Positions 5,098 to 7,319 of a DNA stretch of 33,990 bases are shown here, piece by piece. This DNA comes from a virus (lineage: Duplodnaviria > Caudoviricetes). The translations under genes and the position numbers were made by a program. Every line of letters begins with the position of its first letter. The first letter of the stretch is position 1. The notes under the pieces are model-generated. The model was not told the origin of the DNA. It was given only the letters and a program-made list of their open reading frames with translations, and did no database searches. The stretch spans positions 1-33,990 of the IMG/VR virus record IMGVR_UViG_3300033489_000038; one strand, given 5' to 3'.

Positions 5098-5126
5098 TTG
5101 ATCATTTAGTGGTTACGTGTTATGGT
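5098..5126 (+). promoter_or_regulatory. Sigma70/sigma66-type promoter for the accessory cassette
   Basis: TTGATC (5098-5103), 17 bp, TATGGT (5121-5126) preceded by a TGn extension. Confidence 0.55.
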
Positions 5127-5153
5127 TTCTTTTTTATCAAAAGACCGTGATGT

Positions 5154-5366
5154 ATGTCTACACAAATCCAATACAATTTATTTGAGACAAAAGAAGAATC
5201 AGAGTTTTCTGCGATAGAGTCTCGCGTTGACGAGATTGACAAATCATGTCATAAAATACGAAAAGGGATATTCGCTAAACATTCTGAACTTTTAAAGAAA
5301 TTTACAGATCTTGAACGACGCTTAGAGATTATAGAAATGAACATATGCAGAGGTAAAAATGAATGA
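5154..5366 (+). CDS. Hypothetical coiled-coil protein
   Basis: 70 aa, heptad pattern; first ORF after the promoter. Confidence 0.7.
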   Translation: MSTQIQYNLFETKEESEFSAIESRVDEIDKSCHKIRKGIFAKHSELLKKFTDLERRLEIIEMNICRGKNE

Positions 5367-5565
5367 TTCTTGGGTACAAGTGTTAACTCTAATTTTAGGA
5401 AATGCAGCATTAATCATTCCTCTGTTTATGTGGAATAGAACCGAATCTAGAGCTGATTATCGTCATCTTGAGAATGGTGTTAATGCACAGTTAAAAGCTA
5501 TTCACGAGGAAATGAAGGACTTTCACGGAAGACTTTGTGCTATTGAAGAACGAAACAAAAAATAA
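5359..5565 (+). CDS. Single-pass membrane protein with coiled-coil tail (paralog 1)
   Basis: N-terminal hydrophobic helix WVQVLTLILGNAALIIPLFMW; C-terminus DFHGRLCAIEERNKK; GAGG RBS. Confidence 0.8.
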   Translation: MNDSWVQVLTLILGNAALIIPLFMWNRTESRADYRHLENGVNAQLKAIHEEMKDFHGRLCAIEERNKK

Positions 5566-5574
5566 GGTGAAATA

Positions 5575-5763
5575 ATGGACTGGACACAATTTGCAACGTT
5601 TATGATAGCTAACATGGTCTTTACACTTACTCTATGGCTATGGAGTAGATCTGAATCAAGAAATGATAACAGGCAAATCATAGACTTAATTTCTGCAATC
5701 AAAGAGGAAATTAAGGACTTCCATGGCCGTTTGTGCGCTATTGAAGAACGAAACAAAAAATAA
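5575..5763 (+). CDS. Single-pass membrane protein with coiled-coil tail (paralog 2)
   Basis: N-terminal hydrophobic helix; identical C-terminus DFHGRLCAIEERNKK; AAGGTG RBS. Confidence 0.8.
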   Translation: MDWTQFATFMIANMVFTLTLWLWSRSESRNDNRQIIDLISAIKEEIKDFHGRLCAIEERNKK

Positions 5764-5773
5764 AGGGGGAAAA

Positions 5774-6745
5774 ATGATCAGTAATTCAAAGATACCTTCG
5801 AAAGAATACTTAGCAGAAGAGAATTACACGGCTTTTCAGCGCAGCGAAGAAGAAGAAAAAATAATCGTAAATATTCACCTTGAATCTATGAAACACCTAA
5901 ACTCTACTCATAGAGATGATAAGTTTATCAGGGGATATAATTATTTTGCTTATGCTCCAGACGCTAAAATTAATGTGTTAAAAATATCTGCTGTACCTGT
6001 AACTATAGGATCTGTTAGTGGCGCTGGGATAGGTGCTCTTGCTGGGGCTGGTATAGGTTTCGCGTGCACAGGGACACCTATGGGTGCCGGTGTTGGTGCT
6101 ATTATAGGAGCGTGCTCAGGGAGTGCATTAGGTGGTATTTCATCAACTCCTTACATCGTTTATAAAGTAAGCGAAAGCCCTCATTATATGCGATGGCAGC
6201 AACTTATAAAATGTGTAGAAGTCGATAAAGCTTTTGAGAAATATATTTTTGACGATCCATATCTTCAAGAGTTCAAATGTCCAATCTCTAAAAACACTCC
6301 AAACATACCTATGAAAGCTCCTGATGGTTTGATATATGATGAGGAGTATATCATCCAATGGATCAACACAAACCCAATGATTAAAGATCCTAAAGATCCT
6401 TCGGGTGTAAAAAAAATCCCTATGTCTTCAGTTGCGCGTATCAAACATTTTGAAGCTTATCAACTTGAACTTCATATCCCTACGATGATGAAAATAGAGA
6501 GTCGAATTAAGCAAATTGTAACCTCTGATTTGCAACTTCTTCTTAAAGCTGGTGTTATAGCAGAAAATCTATCGAAATATATAGATGCAAGAAAGCATAA
6601 TGCAAATATCGTTATATCTGCTGAATCAGAAATATTACGTGAAAAATTAACATCAAAGAAATTCACAAGAGAACAGTTTATAGAAAGAAATTTTGAACTT
6701 CAAGACCTATACAATGAAATAAATAAAGGAACGGAAACAGAATGA
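5774..6745 (+). CDS. U-box domain protein (putative E3 ubiquitin ligase) with Gly-zipper hydrophobic segment
   Basis: AGGGGG RBS before ATG 5774. QEFKCPISKNTPNIPMKAPDGLIYDEEYIIQWI fits the U-box pattern F-x-CPI...P...G-x-x-Y-(D/E)-x3-I-x2-W. Preceded by GxxxG repeats. Confidence 0.8.
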   Translation: MISNSKIPSKEYLAEENYTAFQRSEEEEKIIVNIHLESMKHLNSTHRDDKFIRGYNYFAYAPDAKINVLKISAVPVTIGSVSGAGIGALAGAGIGFACTGTPMGAGVGAIIGACSGSALGGISSTPYIVYKVSESPHYMRWQQLIKCVEVDKAFEKYIFDDPYLQEFKCPISKNTPNIPMKAPDGLIYDEEYIIQWINTNPMIKDPKDPSGVKKIPMSSVARIKHFEAYQLELHIPTMMKIESRIKQIVTSDLQLLLKAGVIAENLSKYIDARKHNANIVISAESEILREKLTSKKFTREQFIERNFELQDLYNEINKGTETE

Positions 6746-7149
6746 CTACAATACACTCAAGGTTAAATACCTCTCCATATGTAAACGATCTTACACATGG
6801 TCGTTTATATAATGCCCAAATGCAACGTCTCCTAGAACATGAAGAAAAAACAAAGAAAATTGCTGAAGAATACTTCAAGAATACACCTCCAGAGGTCATA
6901 GAAGCAGATCGAGAGAAAGCTCAACAGATTAGATATGCAAAGATGACTGATAAAGAAAAGTACTTTTACGATAATGTAAAGGTTTTGGATAACGTAAATA
7001 GCGTTTGGGCATTCTTCAAAGCCGCTTATGTAGTCACCTGCTTTATCCCATACATATATATTTCAGAGATGCTAGTTTATATGATATGGGGCGAAGAAGA
7101 GAAAAAACCTCTTCCAGATCCTTCACGACATACAATCATATTAGAATAG
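6742..7149 (+). CDS. Hypothetical membrane protein, Inc-like hydrophobic segment
   Basis: ATGA overlap; about 30 aa hydrophobic stretch VWAFFKAAYVVTCFIPYIYISEMLVYMIWG; S/T/N-rich N-terminus. Confidence 0.65.
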   Translation: MTTIHSRLNTSPYVNDLTHGRLYNAQMQRLLEHEEKTKKIAEEYFKNTPPEVIEADREKAQQIRYAKMTDKEKYFYDNVKVLDNVNSVWAFFKAAYVVTCFIPYIYISEMLVYMIWGEEEKKPLPDPSRHTIILE

Positions 7150-7154
7150 TCAAA

Positions 7155-7319
7155 ATGTTTATCTTAAAAATATTCATGTCTGTATTCATGTTTACTGACT
7201 GGATTTCCTCTTTCCCTGCACGCAGAAGAGAGAGGAAACACCAAGAAAAAATTGATCAGATGATCTTAGACGAAAGATTACGTAGATATAAACGCGATAA
7301 TTCTAACCTACACGAGTAG
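7155..7319 (+). CDS. Small protein with hydrophobic N-terminus and basic tail
   Basis: In-frame ATG at 7155 within ORF 7005..7319: MFILKIFMSVFMF...RRRERK. Confidence 0.45.
   Translation: MFILKIFMSVFMFTDWISSFPARRRERKHQEKIDQMILDERLRRYKRDNSNLHE

Follow-up and report, generated by a model that had tools for sequence, protein, structure and literature searches.

A predicted U-box ligase gene and its likely small membrane partner, repeatedly exchanged between chlamydiae and their tailed phages

U-box proteins depend for their function on the eukaryotic E1 and E2 enzymes and on ubiquitin (PMC13720258), and the NleG U-box ligases encoded on lambdoid phages provide a precedent for the carriage of such genes by phages (PMC3530523, PMC2891834). 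Chlamydiae export ubiquitin-related proteins through type III secretion (PMC4209131), and the chlamydial phages described in the sources available to us are the single-stranded DNA Chlamydiamicrovirus, or remnants on plasmids and islands with terminase and tail-tip L genes (PMC5010888, PMC7846284). Here we analyse a run of six + strand open reading frames (ORFs A to F) that spans positions 5154-7319 of a 33,990-bp virus record (the window, the whole stretch of DNA that was analysed), in which gene families were assigned by profile matches. We find from sequence comparisons that ORF D, a U-box gene, and the adjacent ORF E are a real and repeatedly exchanged gene pair in phages of chlamydiae, and are not part of a six-gene module. 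On balance, the pair is probably a two-gene E3-type effector unit, captured from the chlamydial gene pool by a likely temperate phage of an environmental chlamydia and predicted to act in the eukaryotic host cell.

The presence of a U-box in ORF D, which the sequence-only reading had proposed, is borne out by four kinds of match. ORF D matches the Pfam U-box family PF04564 with 20.3 bits (E value 6e-4), slightly below the gathering cut-off of 21.4, and its best sequence match in the Protein Data Bank (PDB) is LubX (E 3e-4). The profile of the D family matches LubX with an E value of 2.5e-27, plant PUB proteins with 6e-15 and CHIP with 1e-10. Similarly, the AlphaFold model of ORF D (predicted local distance difference test, pLDDT, of 84) contains N-terminal helices, a long helical hairpin (residues 62-133), a U-box and a three-helix bundle, and the top Foldseek ranks are the U-boxes of LubX, CHIP and E4B, with probability 1.0 and TM scores by target of 0.74-0.83, all at E values above 0.1. 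By VIA-align, the C-terminus resembled only generic three-helix bundles, which are not distinctive (syntaxin 6 was best, with a Z of 9.1), and the matches listed include no U-box. The match of ORF D to glycine-zipper models is weak (Pfam Gly-zipper E 1e-3). We consider the U-box fold of ORF D to be established by these profile matches and by the structural model, and ORF D is predicted to be a ubiquitin ligase with a membrane anchor.

Homologues of D were recovered by an exhaustive search, which was required because a word-index search returned D alone, and two proteins when used with the family profile. The exhaustive search gave 204 representatives at E values up to 0.001; 118 of the best 150 of these were aligned with D, for a total of 119 members. 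Several U-box positions are strongly conserved in this alignment, among them C169 (113/119), I171 (I, L or V in 118/119), P179 (109/119) and P216 (101/119), as well as G185 and Y188. I171 and W196 align with LubX and are conserved in the family; loop 2 of the window copy carries an insertion and aligns poorly. We take these conserved residues to bind E2, with the contact positions presumably in loop 1, the helix and loop 2. The fold is RING-like and has no set of zinc ligands: ORF D has a single Cys (C169) in residues 165-232, and the family members have 0-5. Among the 29 relatives that were scanned, 18 pass the Pfam U-box cut-off, although one of these, P0013, is an unrelated tandem U-box protein. 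Another of the 29, P0036, is a member of the D family fused to an OTU deubiquitinase domain, possibly a ligase-deubiquitinase pair within one chain. The closest relative of D, P0002 (32% identical), lies on a 36-kb contig and was not found among viral contigs, and D has no match in GenBank phages or PLSDB plasmids.

In the groups searched, the distribution of the D family points to chlamydiae. A genome scan with the alignment of the ORF B family gave a Parachlamydiaceae-titled metagenome-assembled genome (MAG; G001), a Legionellales-titled MAG (G002) and one weak match; our chlamydial sample consists of 400 genomes of the phylum of G001, taken as Chlamydiota from the title of that MAG. At a threshold of 1e-8 the D profile matched 158 of these 400 genomes, mostly through the U-box alone, and both the hairpin and the U-box were covered (full-length D) in at least 30, with 150 of the 298 matches counted. 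Full-length D was found in none of the 21 genomes in the order of G002 and none of the 250 in its class, which served as controls. Several full-length D genes lie amid housekeeping genes on chlamydial contigs of Mb size, and the 20 chlamydial D loci that we fetched are likewise located among bacterial genes and match the phage loci in D alone. Separately, we noted that many chlamydial MAGs have long ORFs that match in the U-box alone, well in excess of the NEX1b family reported in 2014.

D recurs with a small predicted membrane protein. A small adjacent ORF on the same strand, with a hydrophobic C-terminal half, was present at 16 of 26 D loci (6/6 in phages and 10/20 in chlamydiae), by thresholds that were set after examples had been seen; in control genes, the same test was passed by 8/82 in chlamydiae and 6/224 in phages. 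The recurring unit is thus likely to be D plus this partner, which in the window is ORF E. No homologue of ORF E itself was found. Its hydrophobicity peaks at 1.74 in a single stretch, which the sequence-only reading had called Inc-like; Inc proteins have a bilobed hydrophobic domain of about 40-60 residues.

This arrangement could also be that of a toxin and its immunity protein, or of an exclusion pair, at the inner membrane of the bacterium; the U-box would then be an interaction domain without catalysis, or else a decoy for bacterial E2-like defence proteins. Toxin-immunity pairs usually combine a glycine-zipper protein with a tightly coupled, fast-diverging small membrane protein, a layout that D and E resemble, and the window U-box is diverged. 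However, the U-box is nearest to LubX and to eukaryotic U-boxes and its core residues are kept in the 119 members, one D member has an OTU domain, and full-length D is confined, among the groups searched, to an intracellular phylum. PADLOC gave no match for the six ORFs, and NCBIfam likewise gave nothing for the ORFs tested. We regard a toxin-immunity or exclusion role as unlikely.

The phage copies of D do not form one clade. In a tree of 25 rows, from which a split gene (L108) and a 496-residue duplicated form (L109) were left out, the number of label changes required by the six phage D copies is five, which is not below that for shuffled labels. A single phage clade for D was rejected by the approximately unbiased (AU) test with a p value of 4e-62, or 0.028 without phage G431; long branches are present in this tree. 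G431 itself has the partner and D in common with a chlamydial contig (G203:C38) over 1355 bp at 83.5% DNA identity, ending at the stop codon of D, and the remainder of that contig consists of metabolic genes. The ratio of nonsynonymous to synonymous substitution (dN/dS) for this pair is 0.17 for D and 0.21 for the partner. By these comparisons the same gene pair is one that has been repeatedly exchanged between chlamydiae and their phages. Because D is spread more widely on chromosomes, we infer that transfer was from chromosome to phage; the tree is unrooted.

Such transfers might have brought the phages nothing of use, with D and E as chance cargo, chromosomal DNA gained by recombination. 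Indeed, D is patchily distributed: we searched 50 related phages (the longer records among 79 loci with ORF B relatives, of which 30 were fetched) and found full-length D in five, each time at a different genome position and never adjoining a B gene, and these phages encode recombinases of the RecT/RecE type. If capture were indiscriminate, we would expect other chlamydial gene families in these phages, such as the F-box and ankyrin families that are abundant in chlamydiae (PMC4209131). Yet the D family was captured several times, and neither of those families had a match among the 193 non-core ORFs of the 30 relatives at an E value of 1e-4. Moreover, the DNA shared by G431 stops at the D stop codon and the D frames of the phages are open across 281-340 residues, which makes chance cargo an improbable account of the pair.

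The host of the window phage is very likely a member of the Chlamydiota, because a relative bounded by attachment (att) sites lies in a chlamydial contig and because the integrase of the window provides a second link. The first line of evidence is a prophage of ∼35.7 kb on a 137-kb contig (G287:C1, about 41,995-77,722; L228-L230), which has a 17-bp direct repeat at both ends and is flanked by the bacterial genes ribAB, htpX, kdsB-pyrG and mevalonate genes. Its portal (39-40% identical) and major capsid protein (MCP; 38%) are closer to those of the window than those of all but two of the 30 fetched phages, and the pyrG of G287 is 61-77% identical to that of two chlamydial genomes, compared to 52-55% for three control genomes. 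In this prophage no integrase like that of the window was found, nor was a tRNA at its ends. The second line of evidence is that the C-terminal half of the window integrase (residues 144-311) is 70% identical to a truncated copy on an 860-kb chlamydial contig (G053:C1, 170,615-171,235), which adjoins a probable ParA-like gene and was the only match in 151 genomes at 1e-35. The capsid profile of the family matched 8 of 401 chlamydial genomes, and in one of the chlamydial contigs (G173:C4, 200,658-211,412; L226, L227) a broken capsid gene of the window phage family is located directly beside a partner and D, with a second U-box gene ∼10 kb away. The proposal that this is a phage of an intracellular bacterium is therefore supported by both the prophage and the integrase links, which point to the obligate intracellular Chlamydiota.

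One phage contig of the window family (L080; G002:C55) is found in the Legionellales-titled MAG, either because the contig was misbinned or because the family has a further group of hosts. We judged Legionellales less likely as the host: this is one phage contig in such a MAG, and full-length D was found neither in it nor in the samples of its order and class.

The window phage encodes a portal, a major head protein, a terminase, RecT/RecE, a replication initiator and a tyrosine integrase, and one relative is integrated, so D is carried by a phage with the genes of a temperate tailed phage. The earlier label of podovirus-type holds insofar as the portal, head and terminase matches are podovirus-like; it is based on those genes. 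Genomes in this family are double-stranded DNA of 35-40 kb, and the family's capsid protein finds matches in GenBank phages at 20-26% only. Families of endolysins, holins and spanins had no match in the 49 ORFs of the window, the 193 non-core ORFs or the 78 shared-family representatives of relatives. Lysis may work differently in a host with little peptidoglycan.

The lack of matched endolysin or holin families, in the window and in relatives, bears on the possibility that D and E serve the phage rather than the lysogen, by late marking or weakening of the inclusion membrane for exit of virions from the eukaryotic cell. D is the sole family with a eukaryote-like domain that we found repeatedly in these phages, and glycine-zipper hairpins do occur in pore formers. 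On the other hand, 45 of 50 relatives lack D. Most copies are located in early or accessory regions, in the window opposite to the late operon, and the family is also chromosomal, with most loci having no phage gene in the fetched flanks. We find it doubtful that D and E act in egress. Rather more speculatively, an undescribed tailed-phage family of environmental chlamydiae that has no recognisable lysis genes may have repeatedly captured one chlamydial membrane E3-ligase pair to act across two membranes, remodelling or opening the inclusion. We consider this broader scenario improbable, if worth stating; it would imply phage-steered ubiquitin attack in a system of phage, chlamydia and protist, and would make phages a main route of effector exchange among chlamydiae.

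In the two-gene effector reading, which we favour, D and E would be expressed from the prophage or during infection and exported by the bacterium, most simply via the chlamydial type III system. The glycine-zipper hairpin would place D in the inclusion or an organelle membrane, and the U-box would recruit a host E2 and ubiquitylate a membrane-near target chosen by the helical domains. E could be a membrane partner, a chaperone or a regulated substrate in the manner of LubX and SidH. The benefit would go to the infected chlamydia, and hence to the phage (lysogenic conversion).

A number of observations weigh against this reading, or against parts of it. The window copy of D may be less active, given its score below the Pfam cut-off, its loop 2 insertion and its long branch in the tree; its hairpin is weakly hydrophobic (60 residues, peak 1.53), and the N-terminal content of S, T, P and N, a crude test, gave no separation between the D family (0.30) and phage core proteins (0.29). 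As for the partner, its thresholds were chosen after the fact, half of the chlamydial D loci failed the test, and the partners of D lack clear sequence similarity to each other (best E 0.005). As for exchange, G203:C38 is a short contig (10.5 kb) that starts within the DNA shared with G431 and may have been placed in the wrong bin; the dN/dS values come from one pair and may reflect chromosomal history; and nine in ten of the related phages have no full-length D. As for the host, several of the chlamydial capsid matches are whole phage contigs in MAG bins with no host junction, 2 of 300 control genomes, G002 included, have the capsid family as well, and the window integrase has no relative among the 30 fetched phages, so lysogeny may not be general.

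The remaining features of the locus are collected in Table 1. Consecutive ORFs from A to F are separated by -8, 9, 10, -4 and 5 nt, and the run is flanked by - strand genes, the integrase block on the left and tail genes on the right, in agreement with the original description of six + strand ORFs opposite to both flanks. One Logan contig covers the whole stretch with no differences; it is possibly the source sample itself, a soil metagenome. A promoter of its own had been claimed for this run and was not confirmed: the scan of the window placed no + strand site between 4913 and ORF A, and gave a total of 10 sites compared to 10.6 expected by chance. The terminator scan was likewise at chance level.

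Table 1. Positions of the six ORFs and of neighbouring features in the window
Feature	Length (residues)	Position	Strand	Description
ORF A	70	5154..5366	+	Coiled coil, soluble; an ordinary gene of the early region in this phage family, often just after RecE
ORF B	68	5359..5565	+	One transmembrane (TM) helix and coiled coil; common accessory family, not tied to D
ORF C	62	5575..5763	+	Tandem paralog of B
ORF D	323	5774..6745	+	N-terminal helices, predicted glycine-zipper hairpin (about 66-133), U-box (about 166-235), C-terminal three-helix bundle; core of the finding
ORF E	135	6742..7149	+	Hydrophilic N-terminus, 34-residue hydrophobic stretch 84-117; start overlaps D stop; likely small membrane partner of D
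ORF F	54	7155..7319	+	Hydrophobic then basic; doubtful gene over the 3' end of a tail gene
TATAAT, possible -10 element		5052..5057	+	Perfect match, without a -35 match; putative promoter only
Tyrosine integrase		3795..4730	-	Pfam E 3e-22; outside the module

The sequence-only reading had joined all six ORFs in one eukaryote-directed module, similar to the eukaryotic association module of phage WO. WO, a phage of an obligate intracellular bacterium with eukaryote-like domains, has a large contiguous block of eukaryote-like genes; in the window, one such domain is found among six ORFs. The co-directional ORFs are tightly spaced in the window, and genes of the B family are also found alone on chlamydial chromosomes, which would fit such a module. 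However, most relatives have ORFs A and B but no D, and have them at many positions; of 62 B-family genes a single one, that of the window itself, is followed by D; and ORF F is doubtful. A conserved six-gene unit is largely refuted by these counts, and we hold it to be very improbable. Instead, judging from gene content across the relatives, the run is not a conserved cassette, and A, B and C are phage accessory genes in their own right, located in the same transcription unit. The closest relative, G470 (MCP 89% identical), lacks D and has at this tail junction only RecE, a homologue of A and a 58-residue ORF, and D-E is therefore a variable insertion; the suggestion of a variable effector slot is in this respect confirmed by the comparison across related phages.

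Homologues of ORF A are present in 19 of the 30 related phages, at most three genes after RecE in 8 and adjoining a B gene in 5. Relatives of ORF B were found at 79 viral loci, with 1-9 copies per locus, and in 6 of 400 chlamydial genomes, with no consistent Pfam or PHROG family. As had been proposed, B and C are paralogs with a TM helix and a coiled coil; they are 81% alike across their last 69 nt. The B family has a strongly conserved C-terminal motif with a Cys and occurs in tandem arrays, with as many as 9 copies at one locus (L001, L010, L053), and B-family genes also stand alone between chlamydial housekeeping genes (G001:C3, G100, G241). A holin or spanin role for B and C is unsupported: a holin PHROG was matched by 1 of 44 members (E 0.009), the B genes are scattered in position, and no endolysin was found in the phage family. 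B and C, which have no assigned function, may still be holin or exclusion genes. ORF F has the hydrophobic and basic composition noted before, but it may not be a gene; we treat it as doubtful because it overlaps the tail gene, has no ribosome-binding-like motif and has no family match or convincing relative. The accessory genes of related phages include ParA-type ATPases, an outer-membrane beta-barrel protein, a GT92 glycosyltransferase and collagen-like proteins (L190:8563-9219, L163:13481-14128, L195:2436-3011, L177:9318-10106, L203:8576-9322).

Among described systems, NleG and StoD, type III effectors of E. coli and Salmonella, are like D in that a U-box E3 effector gene is carried on a temperate tailed phage (PMC3530523). 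They differ from D, which combines a eukaryote-like U-box with a glycine-zipper hairpin and a C-terminal bundle and is accompanied by the gene of a likely membrane partner; in addition, the host here is very likely a chlamydia, and the head genes of the phage are not of lambdoid type. The NleG family PF06416 gave no match for D at E values up to 1; the sole Atlas row for a D homologue is an NleG cluster, a weak assignment (0.75) that serves as a lead only. LubX, like GobX and RavN also from Legionella, resembles D most closely, as the best U-box match in sequence and structure, with similarity limited to the U-box together with the helices on either side. There are two U-boxes in LubX, which is secreted as a type IV substrate (PMC13720258), whereas D carries a single U-box, at its centre, and is predicted to have a membrane hairpin. 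NEX1b of Neochlamydia and SneRING of Simkania are, like D, chlamydial proteins of E3 type, for which an action on host ubiquitin has been proposed or demonstrated (PMC4209131, PMC12591485). However, NEX1b has an N-terminal U-box with leucine-rich repeats (LRRs), while the U-box of D is central with all-helical flanks and D has no LRR match; SneRING has an N-terminal zinc RING, while D has its single Cys in a central position. The main texts on these two proteins report neither a glycine zipper nor a phage link (PMC4209131, PMC12591485). The identity of D as an NleG, NEX1b or SneRING protein was ruled out by domain tests.

The principle is not new, since phage-borne U-box effectors are known from enteric bacteria. 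No description of the D family or of the phage group was found in the open-access literature, although subscription papers and supplements may hold one, and a 2026 review names, in its section on RING and U-box proteins, no U-box protein of chlamydiae that has such a hairpin (PMC13720258). For the question of how effectors are acquired and traded by obligate intracellular chlamydiae, the present case offers a concrete vehicle, and ORF D is a small protein open to direct E3 assay. Compared to the WO module, the unit here is one gene and its partner, at variable positions and in about a tenth of the phages. Unlike the known chlamydial phages, the family of the window consists of 35-40 kb double-stranded DNA phages with one att-bounded prophage. 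As far as the open-access literature reaches, what is new is thus a predicted glycine-zipper U-box family in chlamydiae, a tailed-phage family of this size with an att-bounded chlamydial prophage, and the repeated exchange of a gene pair between the two.

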